From a virus, in the IMG/VR virus record IMGVR_UViG_3300028601_000010, positions 1 through 37,720 of that record: 37,720 bases of DNA, one strand, 5' to 3'. Numbering within the stretch: the stretch's first letter is position 1; every line of letters starts with the position of its first letter. This document shows, in pieces, positions 1,249 through 37,720 of the stretch. The translations under genes were made by a program, and so were the position numbers. Under the pieces are notes generated by a model that did not search any database, had not been told where the DNA came from, and saw only the letters and a program-made list of their open reading frames with translations.

Positions 1249-1674
1249 TTATGTCTCCTTTTTGATACGTTCAATCTCTTTAGCATACTTTGATTTGTGG
1301 GATTTACGCAAAGATTCAACTCGGCATTCTTTCGAACAAAACCGGGGTAAAATCCCACGTTGTTCATAATTCCAATCGACATTAGACTTACTTCTCCTGA
1401 ACTCTTTCCCGCACACTTCACATGTAAATAATTCAAATTGCGCCCCCCGCCCCCCTACACGTGGGCAAGATGGTTTAGTTATACATGTATAATATTTGTG
1501 CCGGTGGGTTAGCGCGTCTGATCGATGTGTTTTATACCTAATTACATTATATTCTCTGACGCATGTTTTGCACCAAGGGATGAGTCCATCTTTAGTTGCT
1601 TTTTGTTTGGAAAACTCACTCAATGGTAACTCCCGCCCGCATTTTGTACATACTTTAGTTTTCTCTTCTGTCAT
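1249..1674 (-). CDS. Multi-zinc-finger protein, paralog B
   Basis: Start at Met24 of ORF 1249..1743, giving an ATGA overlap with the upstream stop. Motifs are CTKCGRELPLSEF..DGLIPWCKTC and CEVCGKEF..RFCSKEC. The latter finger type recurs in the intein HNH ORF. Confidence 0.7.
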   Translation of the reverse strand: MTEEKTKVCTKCGRELPLSEFSKQKATKDGLIPWCKTCVREYNVIRYKTHRSDALTHRHKYYTCITKPSCPRVGGRGAQFELFTCEVCGKEFRRSKSNVDWNYEQRGILPRFCSKECRVESLRKSHKSKYAKEIERIKKET

Positions 1675-1925
1675 TTTATCTGGGTTCCTAAAAATTCTTG
1701 GTATTCCCGGTATTTTTTTACGGATGGACGCCATGTTGAACACAGTGTTTTATTAGTGACGTTTTTCCCCATTACTTTCATGGGGAACGTGTCAATATCC
1801 CCCGTTAAGATCTCGCGTAAGGGGATTTTTGGAATGATCCGATTCATCGCATTATCGCATCGAATAGCTGTCCCGTGTGAATATGATTGGACTTTCGTCA
1901 TAAATTCGTAAAAAGATAAGGTCAT
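1671..1925 (-). CDS. Hypothetical protein (84 aa)
   Basis: ORF 1671..1970 trimmed to Met16, which forms an ATGA overlap with the stop of 1922..2110. Confidence 0.5.
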   Translation of the reverse strand: MTLSFYEFMTKVQSYSHGTAIRCDNAMNRIIPKIPLREILTGDIDTFPMKVMGKNVTNKTLCSTWRPSVKKYREYQEFLGTQIK

Positions 1926-2110
1926 TCTGGAAATACCTCGTATATTTCGGTACATGTTTTCCGGGAACACCCGACTTTAATTTTAGGTTTCGTCAGTGCG
2001 GATATAGGTTCATACTCGCACGAAAATACACGAGACGGGCAATTCAGGCACATGTGATAATACAAATCAGTTCGCATGTGATACGTTGTTTTTGTTCGTT
2101 TCTCTTTCAT
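1922..2110 (-). CDS. Small Cys-containing protein (62 aa), first gene of the operon
   Basis: The first codon of ORF 1922..2131 is GTG. The ATG at 2110 has GGAG about 10 nt upstream. Contains CLNC. Confidence 0.5.
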   Translation of the reverse strand: MKEKRTKTTYHMRTDLYYHMCLNCPSRVFSCEYEPISALTKPKIKVGCSRKTCTEIYEVFPE

Positions 2111-2167
2111 TTTTTGTTTGCTCCGTGTCACCTTAATTAAAAAGTAACATACTATAATTAGATTCTT

Positions 2168-2181
2168 AAGTATATATACTT
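2168..2181 (-). promoter_or_regulatory. Promoter palindrome for the minus operon 2110 to 530
   Basis: Exact AAGTATATATACTT. The downstream block GAATCTAATTATAGTAT is the same as at the 5803 promoter. Confidence 0.65.
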
Positions 2182-2189
2182 TGCTTAAT

Positions 2190-2310
2190 AGCTTAGAGAT
2201 TTTACTTCTTCGAGGTTTTTGAATCTAAGAGATTTATTTATTCTTCGAGGTTTTTTGTATCTTCGAGGTTTTTGTATCTAAGAGATTTATTCCTTATTCG
2301 AGGTTTTTGC
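2190..2310 (-). repeat. Iteron array A: 4 copies of CTTCGAGGTTTTT interleaved with 2-3 copies of (A)TCTAAGAGATTT
   Basis: 13-mers at 2208-2220, 2243-2256, 2261-2273 and 2296-2308. TCTAAGAGAT at 2224-2235 and 2276-2288, with a variant at 2191-2204. The array lies immediately upstream, in the transcription sense, of the 2168 promoter. Confidence 0.9.
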
Positions 2311-2360
2311 ATTAACGTCGATTAAAAAAGGGGAGTTGTGTTATCCAGAATCCCAGTCAA

Positions 2361-2852
2361 TCATAACAGCGGATCCCGGCCGGCTCGTTTTGTGAGCCAC
2401 ATGTAGTATTTCGTCTGCCAGAACGGGATATCGACCGGCGCACCGAACACACGCCAGATGTGCCATAAGATACGCTCTAACGGTGTCTGCCAGTCTGCGG
2501 CGAGGATAACCATATCATCTGCCGGCTGACCCACTGCATGAAGCAGTTCGTGCCAGATGCGGAGCGTGATAATCTCGTCTGTATCCTCATCTCTCACTCT
2601 GATACTCACCCGCATATGATACGCCCCACCGAGGGCCAATGCGGGAATATCGTCATCGAAAATATACACATCACCCTCGTGTATCGGCATAGGAAACCCG
2701 TTCCAGATCGGGTCGGATGCGTCGCCGATTGATACGGTGGGAGTGTCAATGCGGATGTGAGAGATATCAAAAAAAAGGGGCAAATTTGGGAGGAGTTTGT
2801 AGACTCGCCAATAAACGTTTTCGTTTTGACAGTAGACGCTAAAGGCCGGCAT
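2361..2852 (-). CDS. Hypothetical protein with an HExxH motif (possible zinc metallopeptidase)
   Basis: The motif WHELLHAVGQPAD. The gene is clear but the function rests on this motif alone. Confidence 0.5.
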   Translation of the reverse strand: MPAFSVYCQNENVYWRVYKLLPNLPLFFDISHIRIDTPTVSIGDASDPIWNGFPMPIHEGDVYIFDDDIPALALGGAYHMRVSIRVRDEDTDEIITLRIWHELLHAVGQPADDMVILAADWQTPLERILWHIWRVFGAPVDIPFWQTKYYMWLTKRAGRDPLL

Positions 2853-2855
2853 GGT

Positions 2856-3359
2856 TTAGTTGGATATTGCCGTTATCGGCGCACCTGCCGCGCGGTTGCA
2901 TGCCGCATAGACACTATTGGCCGACATTAAAACGAACATGCCATACGAGATAAATGCGCTATCGCATGTAGTATCCACGTCGCCATCGTGATCTTCTACG
3001 ATGATGCCATACTCCACAATCCCCTTGCTTTCCATAAGGTCAATGGTTGCCCGGAGTCCGCGCTCATTAACTGCCGCGCCGCCAGCAACAAGCTGTTTGT
3101 AAAGCTGGGCATAAATCTCGTCCGACATTTTCCATGTCCGCGCCGGAATATTGTTCAGCTGTTTCGTCTGGGATTCGGTCTGCGGGACTTCGGGGTCAAA
3201 TAAATCAACGATTGTATTATACCCGTCAAGGGCAACAGACAGTGCGCCGGACAGATCTTTGTTCTTATACTTCTCAATCACTGCGGCGACAACGCCCAAA
3301 ACAGTGGTAATAATAGTAATAACCAACCCGATTGAGGTTGGGTCAAAAAGTGTTTCCAT
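2856..3359 (-). CDS. Membrane-anchored protein of unknown function
   Basis: N-terminal hydrophobic helix IGLVITIITTVLGVVAAVI. The gene is tightly packed with its neighbours. Confidence 0.7.
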   Translation of the reverse strand: METLFDPTSIGLVITIITTVLGVVAAVIEKYKNKDLSGALSVALDGYNTIVDLFDPEVPQTESQTKQLNNIPARTWKMSDEIYAQLYKQLVAGGAAVNERGLRATIDLMESKGIVEYGIIVEDHDGDVDTTCDSAFISYGMFVLMSANSVYAACNRAAGAPITAISN

Positions 3360-3425
3360 AGAGGTATATTACCTCCATGAATGCTTAATAGTTTCGTCCG
3401 TGGATGACGATACTGTCACCTCCTA

Positions 3426-5029: not shown

Positions 5030-5803
5030 TTAGAATATGCCTTTTTGTTCGATACTTTTATTAGCGATATCGACATACTCCTGAGATATCTCAAACCCGA
5101 TATACTTTCTTCCCGTTTCAATTGCCATCTTTGCAGTAGTGCCTGACCCGATAAAAGGATCTAAGATAATATCCCCCGGATTGCTCCATGATAATATATG
5201 ATCCTTTGCTAGATGTTCTGGGAATCTCGCAGGGTGCATACTCTTCCCATTTGCTGGCGGTATTTTCCAAATATTAAACCTCATACCATATTCACCAACT
5301 ATATTCCCTGTGGCTGAATTATACACTGTATTTCCATCAGGATTTCTAATAGTTCCATGAATTTTACATCCTGCATATTTATTCTTACGGTCTTTAATGG
5401 GATTGAATGTTTTCGGAAGTCCTTTACTAAACACAAACATATATTCAAAAATTGAAAAATATCGTTGTTTTATTCCCCCAACGTTAGAACATTGTGGTTT
5501 CTGCCATATCATAGTATCATGCAGATTAAACCCACAATCCATAAAATACAAGGCCTGCCTGAATGACGTTCCAGTTTCACTTCCATTTATGGTAGCATCC
5601 CCAACAACCCATACAACGACACCACCAACCTTTGTAACGCGGAATAGTTCTTTTGCCAATCCTTCAAAATCCCATGTAAACCCGTTATAGGTTCGAAGAT
5701 TGTCATACGGTGGGCTGGTCACCGTTAAATCAATACAATCATCATCTAACTGTTTTATCAAAGTCAGATTGTCGCCACAATATACTTTGTTTAAATCTAA
5801 CAT
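5030..5803 (-). CDS. Orphan beta-class DNA methyltransferase (N4-cytosine/N6-adenine family; the SPPY motif favours N4-C)
   Basis: Motif IV TSPPY near the N-terminus and motif I DPFIGSGTT near the C-terminus. No adjacent restriction endonuclease gene. Confidence 0.9.
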   Translation of the reverse strand: MLDLNKVYCGDNLTLIKQLDDDCIDLTVTSPPYDNLRTYNGFTWDFEGLAKELFRVTKVGGVVVWVVGDATINGSETGTSFRQALYFMDCGFNLHDTMIWQKPQCSNVGGIKQRYFSIFEYMFVFSKGLPKTFNPIKDRKNKYAGCKIHGTIRNPDGNTVYNSATGNIVGEYGMRFNIWKIPPANGKSMHPARFPEHLAKDHILSWSNPGDIILDPFIGSGTTAKMAIETGRKYIGFEISQEYVDIANKSIEQKGIF

Positions 5804-10918: not shown

Positions 10919-11149
10919 ATGTCAACCGAAGTCATTTGCCCATACTGCGGGCATGTATGGATACGTAAAACCAATACGAAAAGCAGAGCATGCCCCAAAT
11001 GCCACCGAACGGCTGTCCCGAGAACACCGCGGGAGATGTTGACGTGTAACCGGTGCGGGAATGTTTGGGAACCGAGAGCATCGGGTAAGCTCCCCGGCAC
11101 GTGCCCCCAGTGTAAATCGCCATACTGGAACAAGGAGCGGGTGCGGTGA
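10919..11149 (+). CDS. Double zinc-ribbon protein (76 aa), leaderless
   Basis: CPYC..CPKC and CNRC..CPQC. The ATG lies 19 nt after the promoter palindrome. The longer ORF 10766..11149 would run through two promoters. Confidence 0.7.
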   Translation: MSTEVICPYCGHVWIRKTNTKSRACPKCHRTAVPRTPREMLTCNRCGNVWEPRASGKLPGTCPQCKSPYWNKERVR

Positions 11150-11337: not shown

Positions 11338-11384
11338 ATCGTATGTTAGTTTATAGATTTTGAAATAATAAAAAAAAGAAAAAA

Positions 11385-11672
11385 TTAATCGGTGTAAACG
11401 GTTATTGGTCTGCCGTTTACAATGTTACCGATATCATCGGTTTCATACCATTCAGGGTTGGTTCCGTTCTGGTAGGTTTCAACCTCATTGATCCAGTAGT
11501 TTTTCAGGTCGTCGTAATCAGCTTGACTGCATACAATGTTCCCGTCCTCGTCTCTGCCGGGGTGGTCGTGTGGAAATCCGACTTCCATATCCCAGAAACA
11601 ATCGCATCCGGTGTAGTCGTCTATAATTCTGATTTCTTTTACTTCTCCCGTTTCAATGATTTTAAAGTTCAT
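11385..11672 (-). CDS. Acidic early protein (95 aa), unknown function
   Basis: Has a promoter, a 5'UTR hairpin and an SD. The protein is rich in D/E/W/Y. Confidence 0.7.
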   Translation of the reverse strand: MNFKIIETGEVKEIRIIDDYTGCDCFWDMEVGFPHDHPGRDEDGNIVCSQADYDDLKNYWINEVETYQNGTNPEWYETDDIGNIVNGRPITVYTD

Positions 11673-11717
11673 TTTAGTTTCTCCTGTAGTCTTACTACAA
11701 TAATCTATTAGACTATA

Positions 11718-11731
11718 AAGTATATATACTT
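11718..11731 (-). promoter_or_regulatory. Promoter palindrome for 11385..11672
   Basis: Forms the left arm of the 11673..11839 palindrome. Confidence 0.7.
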
Positions 11732-11775
11732 ATCTATTTAATCACGATAGATAAGTTCAGTAATATTAAATAGAT

Positions 11776-11789
11776 AAGTATATATACTT
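11776..11789 (+). promoter_or_regulatory. Promoter palindrome for the plus-strand operon starting at 11840
   Basis: Forms the right arm of the 11673..11839 palindrome. Confidence 0.7.
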
Positions 11790-11839
11790 TCGAGTCTAAT
11801 TAATTATTGTAGTAAGATAAACTACAGGAGAAACAAAAA

Positions 11840-12046
11840 ATGAACTTCAGACAAGAATCACCAGCAAACAAATACCTTGAGAGCATCCACACAGCACAGT
11901 CCGAATTAGCAAGGCGCCACATCTCCAGAGATGAATTTATAGACACCCTCGGACAGATCTACCGGGTGGCCATAATGGATTCAGACATCTCAGAAGTTGA
12001 GTTCGGATTTATCAGAGCAATTTACGAAGTCGCAAGGGTTGAGTAA
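11840..12046 (+). CDS. Hypothetical early protein (68 aa)
   Basis: Has a promoter, a 5'UTR hairpin and an SD. It is the first gene of the plus arm. Confidence 0.7.
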   Translation: MNFRQESPANKYLESIHTAQSELARRHISRDEFIDTLGQIYRVAIMDSDISEVEFGFIRAIYEVARVE

Positions 12047-12048
12047 TA

Positions 12049-12885
12049 ATGGCAACAAAACTTACCACAAACGATAAGATTGTAGACGAACTGATAAAAT
12101 CCATCGAGTCTACTGAAACACTCCCGTGGCATGCGGGGTGGGTGTCAGGAGGACTCCCAATCAATTTTACGACTGGGAGACGTTATAACGGCATCAACAT
12201 ACTTATGCTGTGGTCTCGTGGATTCACCCACTCTAAGTTTGCCACATACAAACAAATCAAAAACAAGGGAGGGCAAGTGAAGAAGGGGGAAAAGGGAACG
12301 CCTGTTATCTATTATAACATCTCTGAGAGGATTACAACAGATCCAAAAACAGGGTTGGACAAGATAACTCATATCCCGTTCGCTAAACTTTCATATGCGT
12401 TTAACATCTCTCAGACCGAGGGAATCATGGAAGATGCGGTTGAAACAGGCGAACATGCAACAGCCGAACAGTTCATTAGTTCAATCCCGGCAACTATCAT
12501 TCATGGGTACGATCCTTGTTATGTTCCAAAGAGCGATGAGATACGGGTACCACTGAGAAGCGACGTGGAAACAGAAGAGAGATATTACAGTGTTCTGTTT
12601 CACGAGCTTATACACTGGACCGGAGCGGAAGGGCGTATGGACAGGGATTTGACTCTCCACCACGAAAACAAAGACAAATACTCGTTCGAAGAACTCGTGG
12701 CAGAAATCGGAAGTGCGTTTTTACTGGCCGAGTTTGGAATGAAACCGTGTGAAGAGCAGAACGCGGCATATGTCAAAGGCTGGGCAGAAAGAATAAACGC
12801 TGATAAAAACATGATTATCAAAGCCGCGTCCCAAGCATCCAAAGCAGTTGAGTATTTACTCAGCTTATCGAACACCTCTTTTTAA
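12049..12885 (+). CDS. ardC: ArdC-like antirestriction protein (ssDNA-binding N-terminal domain + zincin metalloprotease domain)
   Basis: The motifs LPWHAGW..GLPINFTTGRRYNGINILML..KGGQVKKGEKGTPVIYY, then HELIHWTG and EELVAEIGSAFL. Confidence 0.9.
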   Translation: MATKLTTNDKIVDELIKSIESTETLPWHAGWVSGGLPINFTTGRRYNGINILMLWSRGFTHSKFATYKQIKNKGGQVKKGEKGTPVIYYNISERITTDPKTGLDKITHIPFAKLSYAFNISQTEGIMEDAVETGEHATAEQFISSIPATIIHGYDPCYVPKSDEIRVPLRSDVETEERYYSVLFHELIHWTGAEGRMDRDLTLHHENKDKYSFEELVAEIGSAFLLAEFGMKPCEEQNAAYVKGWAERINADKNMIIKAASQASKAVEYLLSLSNTSF

Positions 12886-12936
12886 TATATCTTATAATCA
12901 ATAGATTAATGTATATATAAAATAACATAATATTAT

Positions 12937-13596
12937 ATGTTTTCTTCTAAAACAGTTAAACGTTTTCTGCCGGAAAAATATCTGATGATATTATCGGCAT
13001 TTTTTGTAGTATCGTTAGTCATTAGTAATGTTATCGCGGCAAAGGTTGTTCAGATCGGTTGGTTTGAAATCCCGGCCGCAGTATTGGCTTATCCTATTAC
13101 TTTTTTAATGACAGATATTATAAGTGAAATCTTCGGAAAACATTACGCTAAAACCCTTGTTAAGATCGGGTTTGCTGTACAGTTGTTCTCACTTGTCCTT
13201 ATCTATCTCGCAATCTATCTCCCACCTACTATATACATGGTAGAGTTTGATAGCGTATTCCAAGCTACATTAGGTTCCTCTGCCCGGTTTGTAATTGCAT
13301 CATTAATTGCGTATTTAGTTGCACAAACCATAGACGTACATATGTTCCATGCTCTTAAGGCAAGGTTCACGCCCAAATGGATCAGGAATAATGGTAGTAC
13401 TATGATAAGCCAATTGGCAGATACTTCTATATTTATTACTATTGCATTTATCGGAGTAGTGCCAAACATCGGGATTATGATTGTATCTCAGTATGTAGTG
13501 AAATTCTGTTTTGCCGCTCTGGATACTCCTATATTCTACTTCATCACTCGAAGAATGGAGAGAAAACTCAAAGAGGTTAATTATGAAAATAGTTGA
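12937..13596 (+). CDS. yhhQ: YhhQ/DUF165 queuosine-precursor (preQ0/preQ1) transporter
   Basis: Multi-pass hydrophobic protein with the signature VISNVIAAKV..AYPITFLMTDIISEIFGK. Confidence 0.85.
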   Translation: MFSSKTVKRFLPEKYLMILSAFFVVSLVISNVIAAKVVQIGWFEIPAAVLAYPITFLMTDIISEIFGKHYAKTLVKIGFAVQLFSLVLIYLAIYLPPTIYMVEFDSVFQATLGSSARFVIASLIAYLVAQTIDVHMFHALKARFTPKWIRNNGSTMISQLADTSIFITIAFIGVVPNIGIMIVSQYVVKFCFAALDTPIFYFITRRMERKLKEVNYENS

Positions 13597-14092
13597 TATT
13601 CCAATTGAAAAACTTAATTTTTACGAAAAGAATCCTAGAAAAAACGATGAATCAGTTTCATTCATCGCAAATTCTATTTCCCGATTCGGGTTTAAAGTGC
13701 CTATTTCAGTAGATAAGAACAATATAATTATCTGCGGTCATACTAGAGTAAAGGCGGCAATTGAACTTGGATTAAAAACCGTTCCTTGTGTTATTGAATC
13801 GGAGATGACAGATAAGGAAATAAAGGCATTTAGATTAATCGAAAACAAGTCCCACGAATTATCTTTCTGGGATAAATCACTCTTAGAGAGTGAGATGGAT
13901 GACCTTATGGGAGAGTTTGAGTTTGAAGATTTTGGGTTCCTTGATATTGGTGAAACTTTAACTGATAAAGATATAGATATGTTCTTTAAAGAGAATGCAG
14001 TACCCAAACCAGACCAAGTATCAGATGAACATATCGAAGAGAAACCAACTACTATTATCTGCCCCCATTGTGGAGGAGTTGTTGATATTTGA
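13583..14092 (+). CDS. ParB-like nuclease-domain protein (candidate DpdB analogue) with a C-terminal CxxC
   Basis: Start at the ATG at 13583 with an AAGAGG SD. Motifs are NPRKND and ICGHTRVKAAIELGLKTVP. It overlaps both neighbours. Confidence 0.8.
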   Translation: MKIVDIPIEKLNFYEKNPRKNDESVSFIANSISRFGFKVPISVDKNNIIICGHTRVKAAIELGLKTVPCVIESEMTDKEIKAFRLIENKSHELSFWDKSLLESEMDDLMGEFEFEDFGFLDIGETLTDKDIDMFFKENAVPKPDQVSDEHIEEKPTTIICPHCGGVVDI

Positions 14093-14844
14093 GGGTTCAT
14101 CTCGCCGGTATAGGAGTTTATCAAAGACATATGTGGGAGTCAAAACCACCTTATACCTTATATAATTTTTATAGCCCTACCAAAGGGGATATTAAATATT
14201 CACATTCTAATCACTGTAAAGGATATTTAGTGGATTCTGGGGCATTCAGTTTTATGAACTCATCCAATATTAAAGGTGAGGTTAATTTTGATCAGTATGT
14301 GAAAGACTATGCTAAATTCTTAGTTGAGAATAAAGTTAAAAGATATTTTGAATTGGATATTGACTCTATAGTTGGTCTTAAACAAGTTGAGAAATATCGT
14401 ACATATTTAGAGAATGAAACTGGGATCCAATCAATACCTGTATTTCATAAATCCCGTGGTAAAGATTATTTCTTACAGATGATTGATGAATATGATTATG
14501 TATCTATAGGTGGAATTGTAACAAAGGAAATTAAGAGGTCTGAATTACCTCTTTTGAAATGGTTTATTGATATGGCTCATAAAAATAACACTCAGATACA
14601 TGGGTTAGGATTAACTAATGTTCCTATGTTGAAGAAACTAAATTTTGACTCGGTAGATTCTACATCATGGGTGTGTGGGAGGTATGGTACTATAATGAGA
14701 TTTAATCCTGTAACACATATATTTGATAAATTTAATTTTTCTGATGTATGTCCTAACACACGAATGCAAAACTCAGATGAACTTGTTCCCATAAATATTA
14801 AGGAATGGGTTAAGTTTCAATATTGGGCGGAAAACAACCTATGA
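14089..14844 (+). CDS. dpdA: DpdA-like 7-deazaguanine DNA transglycosylase (TGT superfamily)
   Basis: TTG start in a TTGA overlap, with GGAGGAG 11 nt upstream. Landmarks are LVDSGAFSF (compare TGT DSGGFQ), IHGLGLT and NFDSVDSTSW. Confidence 0.8.
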   Translation: MRVHLAGIGVYQRHMWESKPPYTLYNFYSPTKGDIKYSHSNHCKGYLVDSGAFSFMNSSNIKGEVNFDQYVKDYAKFLVENKVKRYFELDIDSIVGLKQVEKYRTYLENETGIQSIPVFHKSRGKDYFLQMIDEYDYVSIGGIVTKEIKRSELPLLKWFIDMAHKNNTQIHGLGLTNVPMLKKLNFDSVDSTSWVCGRYGTIMRFNPVTHIFDKFNFSDVCPNTRMQNSDELVPINIKEWVKFQYWAENNL

Positions 14845-14930
14845 TATTTGAGAGATAATCATATATATGATAACACTTATATTTATGCATATCTTATTAT
14901 TGAATAAACAGAATAATATTTAGGTAAACC

Positions 14931-15338
14931 ATGACTAAACCAAAGTTACCAGAGGACCTCCAGAAGAGAGGGCGCAAACCCATAGAGATAGATTATGACA
15001 TGGCAGAGAAATACTCATCTATTATGTGTACTCAGTCTGAAATCGCTTCTTTATTGGGCGTATCGTTATCAACATTGGAACATGACCCAGAATTTTTGCG
15101 GATTCATAAAAAAGGAATGGAGTCTGGCAAGGCATCTTTAAGGAGAATGCAATACGGTGCGGCCAAGAAAGGAAATGCCACTATGCTGATATGGTTAGGT
15201 AAACAATATTTAGGTCAGAATGACAAACAGGAAATAACAGGATTAATGGGTATCCAGTTTGTTGATAATGTGCCGAAAGACGCGACCAAACCAAACAGTA
15301 TGGCTGATAATTTAGATGAAGTTGAAGAAATATATTAA
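14931..15338 (+). CDS. Terminase small subunit
   Basis: HTH-like segment QSEIASLLGVSLSTLE. It lies directly upstream of TerL and overlaps it. The size is typical. Confidence 0.7.
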   Translation: MTKPKLPEDLQKRGRKPIEIDYDMAEKYSSIMCTQSEIASLLGVSLSTLEHDPEFLRIHKKGMESGKASLRRMQYGAAKKGNATMLIWLGKQYLGQNDKQEITGLMGIQFVDNVPKDATKPNSMADNLDEVEEIY

Positions 15339-17556
15339 AGATCTTTTAACCCCCGCTTTTTATCATGCGTGGTTAGCACTGACCGACCCGAAATATACGT
15401 ATTATGTGTTTAAGGGCGGTAGGAACTCCGGGAAAAGCACATTTGTATCTATGTGTATCATCATCCTGATGATGAAGTTCCCCGTGAATACTCTCGTCGT
15501 TCGTAAGGTGGCCAATACTCTCAGCGAGTCTGTTTATGAACAGCTGATAGAAGCCATTGAACTTTTAGGGGTTACGGACTACTGGAAACGGTCGAAATCC
15601 CCACTCGGCCTTACCTATCTGCCCACCGGAAACCGGATCATATTCCGGGGGGCTGATGACCCGATGAAGCTCAAGTCAATCAAAACCCATCGGTATCCTA
15701 TCGCTATTCTGTGGATTGAAGAGGTCACCGAGTTCAAGAACGAGGATGAAGTATCGACTATCGTAAACTCCGTTATCCGTGCTGGATTACCTGACGGTCT
15801 GAAATATCATATATTTTACACATACAACCCGCCGAGATCTCTTAGTTCGTGGGTCAATATCAAATACAATACCTCGCTTATATCCAATGATACGTATGTG
15901 CATCATTCGACGGTCAATGACAATCCATACCTTAGCAAACAGCTTAAAACCACGCTGATAGAGCTTAAAGCGACGAATCCCGAACGGTATAGATGGGAGT
16001 TCCTTGGCGAGGCTGTCGGGTCCGGAGTTATGCCGTTTGATAATCTCGTGTTCCGCGAGATCACAGACGAGGAGTTACGGGCCTTCGATAATTATCGGTG
16101 TGGTATTGACTGGGGATATGCCAACGATGCGTTTGCGTATGTCAGGTGGCATTACGACCGAACACGCCGGAAAATCTATGCAGTAGATGAACGGTATGGG
16201 GTTAGGCTGACTGACCGGTCTAATGCAGAATGGCTCAAAGCTAAAGGGTATGCGAACGACCATACGTATATCAAGGCGGACTCATCAGAACCAAAAACAA
16301 TTGACCTATATCAAAACGATTACAATGTAACTAATATGCTGGCGGCGACTAAAGGACCCGGCAGTGTTGAGTCAGGAGAAAAATGGTTGAACGATGAGAT
16401 ACTGGAGATTGTTATCGACGAGAGACGGACCCCGAATATAGGGCGGGAGTTTAGGACGATCGACTATGCTCGGACGAAGGATGGGACGATATTGAGCCGG
16501 TTAGTTGACTTTGACAACCATTGTATTGCAGAGGGGACACTGATTACAACCGACGAAGGACAAAGACCAATCGAAACGGTATGTATTGGTGATAAGGTCT
16601 TAACAAGAGATGGATTCAAACGAGTATCAAAGGTTTGGGATAATGGGGTTAAGGACGTTGTTTCGGTTAAATTATCTAATGGTTATTCATTGACAGCAAC
16701 CCACGACCATAAACTATTTGTTAACTCGGAAAGGTATATACCCATAGACACCATACGTTATACTGATGAAGTATGTTGCCTAAAAAAATCGTTTATGAAG
16801 GGATCCCTTACCGATTATCTGAAAATGGATATTATAGATCGTCCCGCTGTAGTAAAAACAATTTCACGACCAGATACTTACACCGTGCGATATGGGAAAC
16901 AGAAACCAATTCTAAGGTACCTGAAGGATATCATATTCACCACAAAAACGAGGATAAATCTAATAATGACATATCCAATCTTGAATGTATTAAAGGGTCA
17001 GAACATCTATCGTTTCACTCAAAGGGGTTTCATAAAAATAATCCAGAGTTTGCGAAAGCAAATTTGGATATCCAAAGACCACTCACCTTGGAATGGCATA
17101 GGTCAGAAGCCGGTCATTTGTGGCATACAGAACATGCTAAAACAAGTCTCGGGAGTAAAGAACCAACCAAACATATATGTGAACAATGCGGGAGAGAGTA
17201 TTTCGCGATCAATACCGGAAATAATAGATTTTGTTCAAACGCGTGCAAAGCAAAATACAGACGCGAATCTGGAGTTGATAACGTCACACGGATATGTAAG
17301 GAATGCGGCAAAGAGTTTGTATCATCCAGATTTAGCGACATTGAATGTTGTAGTCACGGGTGCGCAAATCGTATCGGTGCAAGACGCCGGAAAGATGCAA
17401 GTTTATGATTTAACTGTTGAAGATTCTCACGAATATTTTGCCAATGGTATCTTAGTCCACAATTGTATCGACGCCACACGTTACGCTTTTGAGGATGATA
17501 TAGGCGTTGGAACTTACGAGGATTATGGGTTTATGTCGGGCGGTGGACTGATATAA
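15316..17556 (+). CDS. Terminase large subunit (PBSX/Terminase_3-like) interrupted by a 314-aa intein
   Basis: Walker A KGGRNSGKS. The nuclease motif is split as DFDNH / CIDATRYAF. The extein totals 432 aa. Confidence 0.9.
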   Translation: MKLKKYIKDLLTPAFYHAWLALTDPKYTYYVFKGGRNSGKSTFVSMCIIILMMKFPVNTLVVRKVANTLSESVYEQLIEAIELLGVTDYWKRSKSPLGLTYLPTGNRIIFRGADDPMKLKSIKTHRYPIAILWIEEVTEFKNEDEVSTIVNSVIRAGLPDGLKYHIFYTYNPPRSLSSWVNIKYNTSLISNDTYVHHSTVNDNPYLSKQLKTTLIELKATNPERYRWEFLGEAVGSGVMPFDNLVFREITDEELRAFDNYRCGIDWGYANDAFAYVRWHYDRTRRKIYAVDERYGVRLTDRSNAEWLKAKGYANDHTYIKADSSEPKTIDLYQNDYNVTNMLAATKGPGSVESGEKWLNDEILEIVIDERRTPNIGREFRTIDYARTKDGTILSRLVDFDNHCIAEGTLITTDEGQRPIETVCIGDKVLTRDGFKRVSKVWDNGVKDVVSVKLSNGYSLTATHDHKLFVNSERYIPIDTIRYTDEVCCLKKSFMKGSLTDYLKMDIIDRPAVVKTISRPDTYTVRYGKQKPILRYLKDIIFTTKTRINLIMTYPILNVLKGQNIYRFTQRGFIKIIQSLRKQIWISKDHSPWNGIGQKPVICGIQNMLKQVSGVKNQPNIYVNNAGESISRSIPEIIDFVQTRAKQNTDANLELITSHGYVRNAAKSLYHPDLATLNVVVTGAQIVSVQDAGKMQVYDLTVEDSHEYFANGILVHNCIDATRYAFEDDIGVGTYEDYGFMSGGGLI
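16522..17463 (+). mobile_element. Intein in the TerL nuclease active-site region
   Basis: Block A CIAEGTLI, block B TATHDHKLF, blocks F/G VYDLTVEDSHEYFANGILVHN, followed by the +1 Cys (17464). The region is visibly more AT-rich than the exteins. Confidence 0.9.
16773..17408 (+). CDS. Free-standing HNH homing endonuclease, encoded entirely inside the intein but in the +2 frame relative to TerL
   Basis: Motifs are YLHRAIWE..GYHIHHKNEDKSNNDISNLE..EH, plus two CxxCG(K/R)E(F/Y)..FCS/CCS..C fingers. Two in-frame stops (16764, 16767) precede its ATG. Confidence 0.85.
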   Translation: MLPKKIVYEGIPYRLSENGYYRSSRCSKNNFTTRYLHRAIWETETNSKVPEGYHIHHKNEDKSNNDISNLECIKGSEHLSFHSKGFHKNNPEFAKANLDIQRPLTLEWHRSEAGHLWHTEHAKTSLGSKEPTKHICEQCGREYFAINTGNNRFCSNACKAKYRRESGVDNVTRICKECGKEFVSSRFSDIECCSHGCANRIGARRRKDASL

Positions 17557-21842: not shown

Positions 21843-21846
21843 TAAT

Positions 21847-21988
21847 ATCTCGAAGAATGAATTAATCTCTTAGATGTAAAAACCTCGAATAAAAACCTCG
21901 AAGAATAAATTCATCTCTTAGATACAAGAACCTCGAATAAAAACCTCGAAGAATAAAATCTATCTCTTAGATCTAAAAACCTCGAATG
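21847..21988 (+). repeat. Iteron array B: reverse complement of array A. It has 5 full copies of AA(A/G)AACCTCGAA(T/G), 3 copies of ATCTCTTAGAT, and a ~49-nt higher-order unit.
   Basis: Copies at 21878-21890, 21891-21903, 21926-21938, 21939-21951 and 21975-21987. ATCTCTTAGAT at 21865, 21913 and 21962. The array lies immediately upstream of the structural operon start at 22063. Confidence 0.9.
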
Positions 21989-33866: not shown

Positions 33867-34003
33867 TGGCAGAATTAAGCCCCGCATTAGAGCGCATGGC
33901 TGGATTATACGTTGAACAGATACGGAAAGGAGTTAAGTCAATTGACGAAGTTCCATCCATGTTACGGGCACGTGTTGAAGAGTTGCTCATAAATGACCCT
34001 TGA
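33866..34003 (+). CDS. Small helical protein (45 aa), absent from the ORF track
   Basis: Hand translation gives MAELSPALERMAGLYVEQIRKGVKSIDEVPSMLRARVEELLINDP. TAATG overlap. It resembles the small proteins common in tail-fibre regions of siphoviruses. Confidence 0.5.
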   Translation: MAELSPALERMAGLYVEQIRKGVKSIDEVPSMLRARVEELLINDP

Positions 34004-34775
34004 TTACGATACGGATAGATATGATGCTGGTGGATCTTCCACCACACCAACCCGTAAACTACCCCCATCACACCTTCTTGATTATGATACGGGTAGTTAT
34101 GATGCTGGCGGATTTTCTACCACACCTCCCCGCGTATTACCTGCATCATACCTAATCACCGCGCCGGAAATACGGATTTGTGACGAGGATTATATCCCGC
34201 GTATTGTCCTTGATGGATACAAAAACCTGACTTATACGGAGCGACACCGGAACCGCGATTCATGGAGTTTTGAAGTATCCCGGCATTCAGTCTATGCGCA
34301 ATACCTTATCAAAGGGCGGATTATACATTACGTTACAGGGTCGTCTGTGTATGCGCTGATAATCAAACAGATAGACGCGACTAGGGACACTATCACGGTG
34401 TCGGGTAATGAATACGCAGACGATTTATTATCCGCGAGAATTGCACTTGTAAACGTCCAAGACGGGGTCGGTGCGGACGAGATACAGGACTCCGCAGAAA
34501 CTGCGTTCCGCCATTACGTCAATGGAAATATCATCGAAGCCACAGACACATACAGACGCGACCCGTTTCTGACTCTGGAACCTGTTGATTACGGACGAGG
34601 CGAAACTGTGACGATATCGGCAAGGTTTGAAAATCTTTTAGATCTTTGTGAAACGATCGGGTCGCTGGGTAGTATCGGATGGCGGTCTGTGGTTGTAGAC
34701 GATGACACGAAACCATGGGGATGGAAAATAGTTATGTCGGTTGTTGAAGGGAACGATTTGGGAGAAGTCGTATGA
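33993..34775 (+). CDS. Baseplate/tail-tip protein with a tandem 26-aa N-terminal duplication
   Basis: 78-nt tandem units at 33999..34076 and 34077..34154, encoding LDYDT(D/G).YDAGG.STTP.R.LP.S(H/Y)L. Confidence 0.65.
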   Translation: MTLDYDTDRYDAGGSSTTPTRKLPPSHLLDYDTGSYDAGGFSTTPPRVLPASYLITAPEIRICDEDYIPRIVLDGYKNLTYTERHRNRDSWSFEVSRHSVYAQYLIKGRIIHYVTGSSVYALIIKQIDATRDTITVSGNEYADDLLSARIALVNVQDGVGADEIQDSAETAFRHYVNGNIIEATDTYRRDPFLTLEPVDYGRGETVTISARFENLLDLCETIGSLGSIGWRSVVVDDDTKPWGWKIVMSVVEGNDLGEVV

Positions 34776-35263
34776 GCTGGGTTATTTTGTCTGAGGAGAT
34801 GGGCACTGCGGTATTATCCCGGTTTGTTGACACTATCCCTGAATGCACGGTCGCGGTCGTCGGGGGGCAGGGTGAAGCGGCGGTGCGAACCATACAGTAT
34901 GTAGGCGATACAACATTGACCGGTATCGAACGGAGGGAAGTATTTGTTGACGCGAAATATGCCACGACGGCCGACTTACTGACGACAGCGGGAGAAAAAG
35001 AGATCGCCGCGAATGTAGGGACCGTTATCGAGATGCAGTTTGCGGACTCGTTAGGATGTGTTTACGGCGAAGATTTTATTCTCGGCGATATTGTTACAGT
35101 CGACGCGGGTATTTACGGGAAATATGATATTGAGGTTGTTTCGGCCGAAATCAATTATACCGCAGACAAGAGAGATATTATTATAGTCCTTGGGAGCGAA
35201 GGAACTAATATAGTCCGGATGATAAAGGACGTATCGAAGAACAATCCAATATTGAGAGTGTAA
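34772..35263 (+). CDS. Tail-tip protein, unknown role
   Basis: ATGA overlap with the upstream gene. Confidence 0.6.
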   Translation: MSWVILSEEMGTAVLSRFVDTIPECTVAVVGGQGEAAVRTIQYVGDTTLTGIERREVFVDAKYATTADLLTTAGEKEIAANVGTVIEMQFADSLGCVYGEDFILGDIVTVDAGIYGKYDIEVVSAEINYTADKRDIIIVLGSEGTNIVRMIKDVSKNNPILRV

Positions 35264-37352: not shown

Positions 37353-37688
37353 TTACTCATCTTCAAACACAATCATTCCGCCGCGGTTAGCTGACGTAGA
37401 CGCGGTGCTTATGACTGATTCAAAGGTGTCATCATCCACTAAAATCCCATCGCACACATCATTTACAACTTCTGTGATATCCTTAAACTCAACCTCTTCA
37501 AACACTGGGACTAATCCAAGTTGCTTAGCGGCTCTGATTCTGTGGCAACCTTCAAGGGCTAAAAAAGCCCCAAAACATTCACAGTAAAACCCTCTTATTA
37601 CGGGAGTTCCCATCGTCTGCATTTCAGATACAACTTCTTTCAGGTGTTCTTCATCGTAGTACCCATGTAATAGTATTACTGTTGTCAT
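37353..37688 (-). CDS. Small ParB/Srx-like domain protein (111 aa), first gene after IR-L
   Basis: The motif ALEGCHRIRAAKQLGL. Its 5' end is duplicated at 1..95 by the circular overlap. Confidence 0.65.
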   Translation of the reverse strand: MTTVILLHGYYDEEHLKEVVSEMQTMGTPVIRGFYCECFGAFLALEGCHRIRAAKQLGLVPVFEEVEFKDITEVVNDVCDGILVDDDTFESVISTASTSANRGGMIVFEDE

Positions 37689-37720
37689 TTTGTCTTTCCT
37701 CTACTTACTATATTAGCTTC
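37594..37720. repeat. Terminal direct repeat copy 2, identical to 1..127
   Basis: Exact 127-nt identity with the window start. Confidence 0.95.

Follow-up and report, generated by a model that had tools for sequence, protein, structure and literature searches.

The substitution of guanine by 7-deazaguanines in DNA is a major counter-defence of phages, blocking restriction enzymes and, in vitro, Cas9. In this study we analysed a candidate cassette for this type of modification in the IMG/VR virus record IMGVR_UViG_3300028601_000010, whose 37,720 nucleotides (hereafter referred to as the window) correspond to a tailed virus with a 37.6-kb genome. Three consecutive genes code for a YhhQ-family queuosine-precursor transporter, a ParB-like protein and a DpdA-like transglycosylase, identities that sequence and model comparisons make near certain. 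Our results indicate that the three genes probably constitute one operon for the post-replicative 7-deazaguanine modification of viral DNA, supplied through salvage.

Several systems comparable to this cassette have been previously described. Bacterial DpdA requires the ParB-fold ATPase DpdB, a protein of about 400 amino acids (aa) with a DGQQR motif and an SspE-like helical C-terminal domain (PMC10164549). In the Dpd system of Salmonella Montevideo (Gedara et al. 2023), as in the window, a DNA transglycosylase of the tRNA-guanine transglycosylase (TGT) fold, with the same catalytic Asp/Phe/Asp/His/Asp set, occurs together with a protein of the ParB superfamily, and preQ0 is taken from the pool of the cell. 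The bacterial system differs in the presence of DpdC and DpdD-K, which the window lacks, and in its purpose, host restriction-modification, whereas counter-defence is proposed here. Mycobacteriophage Rosebush, in which dPreQ0 takes the place of about 28% of G in the DNA (PMC6884629), codes in gp1-gp6 for a ParB-like protein, DpdA, QueC, QueD, QueE and FolE, its DpdA belonging to the same clade as that of the window. In both viruses the ParB-like gene lies 5' of dpdA and overlaps it, the cassette is located directly upstream of the terminase, and the proteins share a homologous ParB N-domain and the DpdA motifs DSGAFS, IGG, HG.G and VDSS. Rosebush, however, produces its own preQ0 through four synthesis genes and has no transporter, while the window has YhhQ only; the Rosebush proteins, of 263 and 385 aa, exceed those of the window in size and are about 24-25% identical to them, and its ParB lacks the Arg of the GxxRxxA motif (GNHT), unlike the window ParB. 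Fusobacterium phage phiFN37 (OR492271) resembles the window in harbouring ParB, DpdA and YhhQ in one same-strand cluster, with a 4-nt overlap between ParB and DpdA and no synthesis genes in the 12.8 kb inspected. Its DpdA and YhhQ, annotated as queuine tRNA-ribosyltransferase and queuosine-precursor transporter, are 36% and 50% identical to their counterparts in the window; it differs in gene order (ParB-DpdA-hypothetical-YhhQ) and in its bacterial host, and we found only automatic annotation for it and no analysis, either experimental or published.

The E. coli phages 9g and CAjan (Queuovirinae) share with the window a homologous DpdA1 and, as proposed for the latter, protection from restriction, and CAjan also a phage yhhQ-like transporter; deletion of dpdA in CAjan abolishes both modification and restriction resistance. 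They differ in possessing the full FolE/QueD/QueE/QueC set, a DpdA of about 306 aa and a dispensable yhhQ, and in having no ParB partner. A further relative of the window ParB is found in Methanoculleus virus Blf4, whose gp05 (1242-2486) is a ParB N-domain fused to a DNA methyltransferase and is 42% identical to the window ParB over 102 aa; the N-terminus of the PADLOC MTase_II model also matches the window protein (E 2e-20). Fusions of this kind occur in many phages; among the loci compared (L159, from Blf4, and L160-L239), gp05 resembles the window ParB in its type of N-domain, its tie to a DNA-modifying enzyme and its position just upstream of the terminase. The fusions, however, are single polypeptides, whereas the window ParB, which carries an acidic linker and a CPHCG tail, is encoded by its own gene and paired with a transglycosylase.

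The largest group in the survey of Hutinet et al. 2019 (PMC6884629) comprised 76 phages with DpdA and no synthesis genes, for which host preQ0 or uptake was proposed, and phage YhhQ homologues were noted in the same work. The CAjan yhhQ was annotated as well, and salvage is less novel than an earlier sequence-only reading of the window had claimed: both the salvage idea and the individual components are already known. These DpdA-only phages stand in published work as an unexplained majority group whose phage partner protein was not analysed, ParB being unmentioned both in Hutinet et al. 2019 and in Cui et al. 2023 (PMC10516641). The paper on phage CRB2 proposed, in a brief remark, that ORF1 of this phage is homologous to dpdB (PMC6392294), and a 2025 paper (PMC12783734) reported that ParBc domains of unknown function accompany phage DNA-modifying enzymes. 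What appears to be new, as judged from the literature that could be searched, is the strength and breadth of the coupling between ParB and DpdA and the recurrence of ParB-DpdA-YhhQ as a module.

The window represents a complete, closed genome of 37,593 bp, with positions 1-127 identical to 37594-37720 (a 127-nt exact terminal direct repeat). The genes yhhQ, ParB and dpdA are translationally coupled. The ParB ATG (13583), which follows AAAGAGG, is located 14 nt within the 3' end of yhhQ, and the TTG start of dpdA (14089) overlaps the ParB TGA as TTGA, with GGAGGAG about 10 nt upstream. This TTG was accepted as the start because the N-terminus MRVHLAG aligns from residue 1 with the homologues (pattern M[KR][VI].LAG). 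Identical genes of 219, 169 and 251 aa were obtained from independent gene calls on ENA ERZ27247324 and Logan SRR8449815. No Shine-Dalgarno sequence was seen before the YhhQ ATG on reading 12886-12936, and the region of TGTATATATAAAA may provide the cassette with its own promoter and a near-leaderless mRNA; related TATA-like palindromes precede other early genes. Scans for sigma-70 promoters and terminators at 11.7-15.4 kb showed no enrichment over shuffled sequences and defined no operon boundaries.

Regarding the transglycosylase, Pfam returned nothing for the 251-aa protein at E<=0.01, and thus neither PF01702 (canonical TGT) nor PF20314 (the DpdA4 of archaeal viruses, DUF6610). The protein matched phrog_887 (2e-45), and its family alignment (A1) matched the experimentally validated CAjan DpdA with an hhalign probability of 99% (E 4e-18, 189 columns), the corresponding phmmer comparison of the two proteins giving 6e-11. 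An AlphaFold2 (AF2) model built with 34 homologues reached a predicted local distance difference test (pLDDT) value of 90.1 and a predicted TM-score (pTM) of 0.87, and the top 50 Foldseek matches in PDB were all tRNA-guanine transglycosylases (probability 1.00, E down to 8e-7, TMq about 0.6). The TGT relationship was reached by this fold search, the A1 profile giving only a chance match among PDB sequences (Homer, E 0.54). Across the 34 homologues D49, D90, H171, D187 and D190 are invariant and F53 is nearly so, corresponding to Asp95, Phe99, Asp130, His181 and Asp256 of S. Montevideo DpdA, a set defined by mutagenesis and structure (PMC10164549); the motifs also align with CAjan DpdA. D187 or D190 would act as the nucleophile, D49 as the general acid/base, and F53, D90 and H171 would bind the base; only the equivalent of D190 is kept in CAjan and Rosebush DpdA. 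The bacterial equivalog NF041059 scored 19.8 bits against a cutoff of 200, and the protein is a minimal TGT TIM barrel devoid of Zn, PUA or other tRNA-binding modules. The homology to CAjan DpdA, the TGT fold, the conserved catalytic set and the lack of tRNA-binding modules lead us to predict a minimal DNA-type transglycosylase, DpdA1-like in comparison with models of bDpdA, DpdA4 and canonical TGT.

The 169-aa protein was recognized by Pfam ParB_N (PF02195; 37.7 bits, cutoff 26.3, E 2e-9) and by phrog_620 (3e-46). Its AF2 model (pLDDT 85) found its best PDB matches in the CTP-binding ParB-family proteins Noc, PadC and M. xanthus ParB-CTPgammaS, the last with a root-mean-square deviation of 1.8 A over about 92 columns, and Caulobacter ParB, Bacillus ParB and KorB were also among the best matches. 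The motifs of the ParB nucleotide pocket (NPR, SI..FGF, GHTRxKA and NK) are invariant across its family, including residues N17-P18-R19, G52-H-T-R55, A58 and N88, and NPR, GxxRxxA and N88 are kept at 85-100% in the ParBs adjacent to DpdA. These features characterize a canonical CTPase-type ParB N-domain, for which binding and hydrolysis of a nucleoside triphosphate (NTP) are predicted from the pocket motifs. About 75 residues follow the N-domain, comprising a partly disordered acidic linker (pLDDT <50 at 140-152) and a nearly invariant single CPHCG knuckle; no helix-turn-helix (HTH) was detected by Pfam or in the AF2 model, and the central parS-binding and C-terminal dimerisation domains of ParB clamps were not found. 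Orthology with DpdB was considered and ruled out: the protein carries GHTRVKAA, of the GxxRxxA type, and not DGQQR, it has 169 aa instead of about 400, it lacks the C-terminal helical domain, and no NCBIfam DpdB model matched at E<=0.01, nor did any PADLOC model at E<=0.1 except the MTase_II N-terminus already mentioned.

The 219-aa protein aligned with all 152 positions of Pfam Vut_1 (E 4e-46) and exceeded the cutoff (50.95) of TIGR00697, the NCBIfam equivalog named 'queuosine precursor transporter', scoring 146.5 bits, so that its membership in the YhhQ family is near certain; the E. coli-specific model NF008406 remained below threshold (57.8 against 252). Its nearest annotated relatives are found in Clostridium phage CDKM15 (54% identity) and in phiFN37. 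No match to FolE, QueD, QueE or QueC was found among window open reading frames (ORFs) of at least 40 aa using phmmer with CAjan queries, whereas the identical search recovers such genes from dozens of related loci; about 37 window ORFs scanned with Pfam likewise revealed no folE, queD, queE or queC, and the genome contains no tRNA genes. Much of what the sequence-only reading had proposed is borne out by these results: three plus-strand genes with overlapping stops and starts, whose translations contain the motifs it quoted, a YhhQ protein passing both family models, a DpdA-type rather than a tRNA enzyme, with the TGT barrel and both Asp positions present, and a closed genome free of precursor-synthesis genes. 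Its designation of the second protein as DpdB-like was correct as to the ParB domain, a ParB/Srx-fold N-domain overlapping dpdA, and mistaken if orthology with DpdB was meant.

To place the cassette among its relatives, 80 IMG/VR loci and 68 loci from GTDB species-representative genomes, about 150 in all, were fetched by means of alignment A1 and annotated locally with phmmer and hmmsearch; a single-sequence DpdA pattern scan of IMG/VR had yielded nothing, and the loci were recovered once A1 was built. About 66 of 83 viral loci and about 55 of 68 genome loci have ParB directly 5' of DpdA and in the same orientation; the two genes often overlap, and the exceptions are mostly contigs that end at DpdA. 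The claim that viral DpdAs lack a ParB partner is accordingly wrong for this clade, as Rosebush gp1-gp2 also illustrates. The genes located 3' of the pair vary: QueC(D)E plus FolE in about 47 viral loci, YhhQ as the only supply gene in about 21 viral and 24 genome loci, and QueC plus YhhQ in about 10 viral loci. Because the pair stays while the downstream genes vary, ParB-DpdA appears as the conserved core, presumably the insertion machine, and precursor supply as a swappable module, and such an alternation is expected if ParB-DpdA inserts the base and the remaining genes supply it. The window contains the transporter-only version with YhhQ in first position, the usual order elsewhere being ParB-DpdA-x-YhhQ. 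Nor is the cassette unusual, since ParB-DpdA-YhhQ is common in gut and rumen prophages and is annotated in phiFN37; at the DNA level, a blastn search of the cassette against INPHARED gave two short matches only, and no close relative among deposited phages. The ParB-DpdA-QueC-YhhQ cassettes devoid of QueD, QueE and FolE (e.g. L013, L022, L024, L034, L035, L055, L065, L069, L101, L115 and L119) suggest salvage of an earlier intermediate (CDG) or another role of the QueC-like enzyme.

The translational coupling of the two genes, together with the occurrence of the pair in 38 of 48 DpdA clusters at 70% identity, argues for a functional coupling of ParB to DpdA. A different explanation would be that ParB is a generic DNA-binding, nuclease or regulatory phage protein unrelated to base exchange, DpdA and YhhQ acting as proposed; it might even be a packaging mark, since ParB adjoins the terminase genes. 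We consider this unlikely. Small ParB_N proteins are indeed very common in phages (more than 3100 clusters), phiFN37 alone harbours three in a stretch of 10 kb, the DpdA1 enzymes of 9g and CAjan are active in the absence of ParB, and no ParB-DpdA fusion was seen among 120 DpdA homologues. Nevertheless, the same-strand adjacency persists among the divergent clusters, across many bacterial phyla and with changing downstream genes. Moreover, in a reciprocal search 20 of the 80 closest viral homologues of ParB were short and followed by DpdA, and most of the others had 300-490 aa with a C-terminal extension, recognisable as a DNA methyltransferase in at least 11 long forms, while several more adjoin a separate methyltransferase ORF. 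This ParB domain, whose closest homologues adjoin DpdA or are fused to a methyltransferase, hence tracks DNA-modifying enzymes. The C-terminal CxxC tail, CPHCG in the window, also separates the two groups, being present in 101 of 138 DpdA-adjacent ParBs and in none of 48 long forms not adjacent to DpdA, some of which are recognised methyltransferase fusions.

In the modification pathway that we propose, YhhQ, in the host membrane, would import a free 7-deazaguanine base, most likely preQ0 and possibly preQ1 or a related base, and a host-made pool would add to this supply, a methanogen host making preQ0. DpdA would then swap guanine for the imported base in viral double-stranded DNA through the double-displacement mechanism of TGT enzymes. 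ParB would serve as a dedicated partner contacting DpdA, an NTP-dependent step (probably with CTP or ATP), suggested by the intact nucleotide-binding pocket, loading or moving the enzyme on DNA. Its role would be analogous to that of the ATPase DpdB but filled from another ParB lineage, the one that has fused to phage DNA methyltransferases. The modified DNA would finally resist host restriction, the cassette adjoining the anti-restriction gene ArdC just upstream of the terminase genes. The family as a whole likely exchanges guanine for 7-deazaguanine to evade host restriction. For this virus alone, the cassette is one more member of a large and mostly undescribed family; taken together with the related loci, the conserved unit is ParB plus DpdA followed by a swappable supply module. 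We therefore put forward the hypothesis that phage DpdA depends on a ParB-type nucleotide switch in the way its bacterial counterpart depends on DpdB, which would link the unexplained ParB domains of phage methyltransferases to the same role. A broader formulation, which we offer tentatively and hold to be somewhat less than an even chance, is that a distinct lineage of small CTPase-type ParBs, marked by the acidic linker and the single CPHCG knuckle, is the obligate partner of a large clade of minimal phage DpdAs, convergent with DpdB and not orthologous to it, and that the cassette crossed into a methanogen virus. In that case nucleotide-gated loading or sliding on DNA would render base exchange efficient or direct it selectively to viral DNA, and the same ParB module would serve phage methyltransferases as a fusion.

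Several observations weigh against the proposed modification of viral DNA by the three-gene operon. Phages with DpdA as their only pathway gene can be barely modified or not modified at all, as exemplified by Salmonella phage 7-11 (0.02% of G) and by Orion (none), in which ParB and DpdA genes were not seen at either genome end examined. The activity of DpdA1 in 9g and CAjan without ParB indicates that a ParB partner is no general requirement, and deletion of yhhQ in CAjan is without effect where synthesis genes are present. The transport of preQ0 or preQ1 by YhhQ is a prediction, as substrates in this family are not predictable from sequence. Some YhhQ-family members have been reported to carry other 7-deazaguanines. 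The 169-aa ParB has no HTH or other recognisable DNA-binding domain, and no ParB-DpdA fusion was found among 120 DpdA homologues, whose long forms bear other N-terminal extensions. Lastly, if the host is archaeal, a recent and compositionally unadapted cassette of bacterial type might be poorly expressed or non-functional.

The last point concerns the origin of the cassette, which lies in an accessory island (Table 1). The cassette, with a GC content of 0.343 against 0.45 in the genome, is the lowest-GC stretch of the latter (lowest 2.4% of equal-sized windows), and its GC content at third codon positions (GC3) is 0.25-0.35 against about 0.5; the whole island reaches 0.366 compared with 0.459 outside it. 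A foreign composition is confined to the three cassette genes, ArdC (0.447) being genome-typical. The other genes with low GC3, namely an N6_N4 methyltransferase, an HNH gene and an intein, are also mobile or accessory. Two close relatives, with portals 90-95% identical and otherwise collinear with the window in blastn, lack both the cassette and ArdC. In one of them (L089) the alignment jumps from window position 11355 to 15246, 11356-14930 being entirely missing; in the other (L088) 11380-15306 is replaced by other cargo, a 204-aa ORF and a 401-aa radical-SAM-like ORF (a faint signal), located at 1591-3388 of GCA_043955425.1 contig JBINOG010001965.1. Because it is missing or replaced in close relatives and has the lowest GC, the ArdC-YhhQ-ParB-DpdA block is best regarded as an acquired, variable counter-defence island at the early/packaging boundary. 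It occupies the same position upstream of the terminase as the Rosebush cassette and the Blf4 fusion gene, and alternative genes for DNA modification or counter-defence may preferentially accumulate at this site.

Table 1. Position of the cassette and of its surroundings in the window, with the evidence for each feature.
Feature	Coordinates	Strand	Details
Accessory island	11356..14930	+	two small ORFs, ArdC, YhhQ, ParB, DpdA; between early genes and packaging module
ArdC-like anti-restriction protein	12049..12885	+	Pfam ArdcN 3e-28, MPTase-PolyVal 3e-34 (zincin metallopeptidase domain)
AT-rich intergenic region	12886..12936	+	TATA-like TGTATATATAAAA at 12910-12922, about 21 nt 5' of YhhQ ATG
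Predicted YhhQ/COG1738 queuosine-precursor (preQ0/preQ1-type) transporter	12937..13596	+	219 aa; Pfam, TIGR00697
ParB N-domain protein (CTPase-type ParB/Srx fold)	13583..14092	+	169 aa from ATG; Pfam, phrog_620, AF2
Predicted DpdA1-like DNA-guanine transglycosylase	14089..14844	+	251 aa, TTG start; phrog_887, hhalign, AF2

The host of the virus is probably a member of the Methanomicrobiales. The portal and putative capsid protein match, in INPHARED, only the Methanomicrobiales-assigned virus vir524, the tape measure protein is 44% identical to its Blf4 counterpart (E 3e-105), and four further tail or baseplate proteins match Blf4. A double zinc-ribbon ORF (10919-11149, plus strand) matches the TFIIB zinc-ribbon family (6e-10), a feature of archaeal or eukaryotic type, and a TATA-like 14-nt palindrome upstream of early start codons (described below) points the same way. 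Against this host counts the large terminase (TerL), 59% identical to those of Brevibacillus and Bacillus phages; TerL was rejected as uninformative for host assignment, conflicting as it does with the portal, major capsid and tail evidence, and because of this conflict the host is held to be probable and not proven. All 68 genome loci with this DpdA family are bacterial (Clostridia, Bacteroidales, Veillonella, Staphylococcus, Saccharibacteria and others) while the head and tail genes point to a methanogen, and the cassette was therefore probably acquired across domains from the bacterial phage gene pool. To our knowledge, only DpdA4 has been described so far in archaeal viruses. If the methanogen host is true, cross-domain movement of a DNA-hypermodification cassette would be documented, and this would be the first 7-deazaguanine system of the DpdA1/ParB type in an archaeal virus. 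The sequence-only reading was right about a horizontally acquired island between early and packaging modules, and about a cassette more AT-rich than its surroundings, with the exception of ArdC, which is not compositionally foreign like the cassette; its guess of an archaeal host finds support in a tail like that of Blf4 and a head like that of vir524, and is opposed by a TerL resembling those of bacterial phages.

A recent acquisition could also mean that the cassette is present without producing any useful modification, owing to poor expression or to the lack of a suitable base. The low GC3, which indicates a recent foreign origin, the contrast between bacterial relatives and methanogen-like virion genes, and the precedents of Orion and 7-11 agree with this explanation. 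It is nevertheless improbable, slightly more so than an unrelated ParB, given that the three ORFs are intact and the catalytic residues conserved, that two further assemblies carry the cassette with 99.6-100% conservation and that a variant 92-96% identical also has both proteins intact (P0001, P0130). A suitable base should likewise be within reach, as an importer is present to secure supply and Euryarchaea make preQ0 for tRNA archaeosine. A cassette acting on RNA and host physiology, which would raise queuosine or archaeosine-type tRNA modification and tune translation, is very improbable: the TGT fold is common to tRNA enzymes, and Hutinet et al. note that phages with pathway genes but no DpdA may boost queuosine in tRNA, but the 251-aa minimal barrel lacks the Zn subdomain and the PUA or tRNA-binding domains, its homologues include enzymes with demonstrated activity on DNA, its conserved partner comes from a DNA-clamp protein family, and the genome encodes no tRNA.

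The genome codes for a second DNA-modification gene, the stand-alone N6_N4 DNA methyltransferase already mentioned (5030-5803, minus strand, GC3 0.32). A partnership of ParB with this enzyme was rejected, as the two genes lie 8 kb apart on different strands and the overlap and synteny of ParB with DpdA are conserved. TerL (15316-17556) contains an intein at about 16522-17465, with Hint and Intein_splicing matches, which is absent from close relatives (TerL of 431-432 aa). A 211-aa HNH_3 endonuclease ORF (16773-17408) is nested within the intein in another frame, the TerL/intein frame being open throughout, and resembles an overprinted homing endonuclease.

A 14-nt palindrome, AAGTATATATACTT, occurs in nine copies against 0.11 expected (window positions 130, 2168, 5823, 10525, 10850, 10886, 11718, 11776 and 20378), all intergenic and in early or divergent regions. 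The centres lie 26-57 nt upstream of start codons, e.g. 26 nt before the methyltransferase ATG and the ATG at 10919. The element is TATA-box-like and consistent with archaeal promoters and leaderless mRNAs, or it might represent an operator. Repeats of roughly 35-50 nt (CCTCGAAGAAT...ATCTCTTAGAT) form two arrays of about three units each, at 2200-2305 and 21844-21988; the arrays, some 19.6 kb apart, look mutually reverse-complementary and may represent iterons or regulatory binding sites. Finally, two overlapping ORFs (33993-34775 and 34772-35263) make up a split Sipho_Gp37-like tail protein; they correspond to its N-terminal and C-terminal halves in the family model, and both also match adjacent regions of Blf4.

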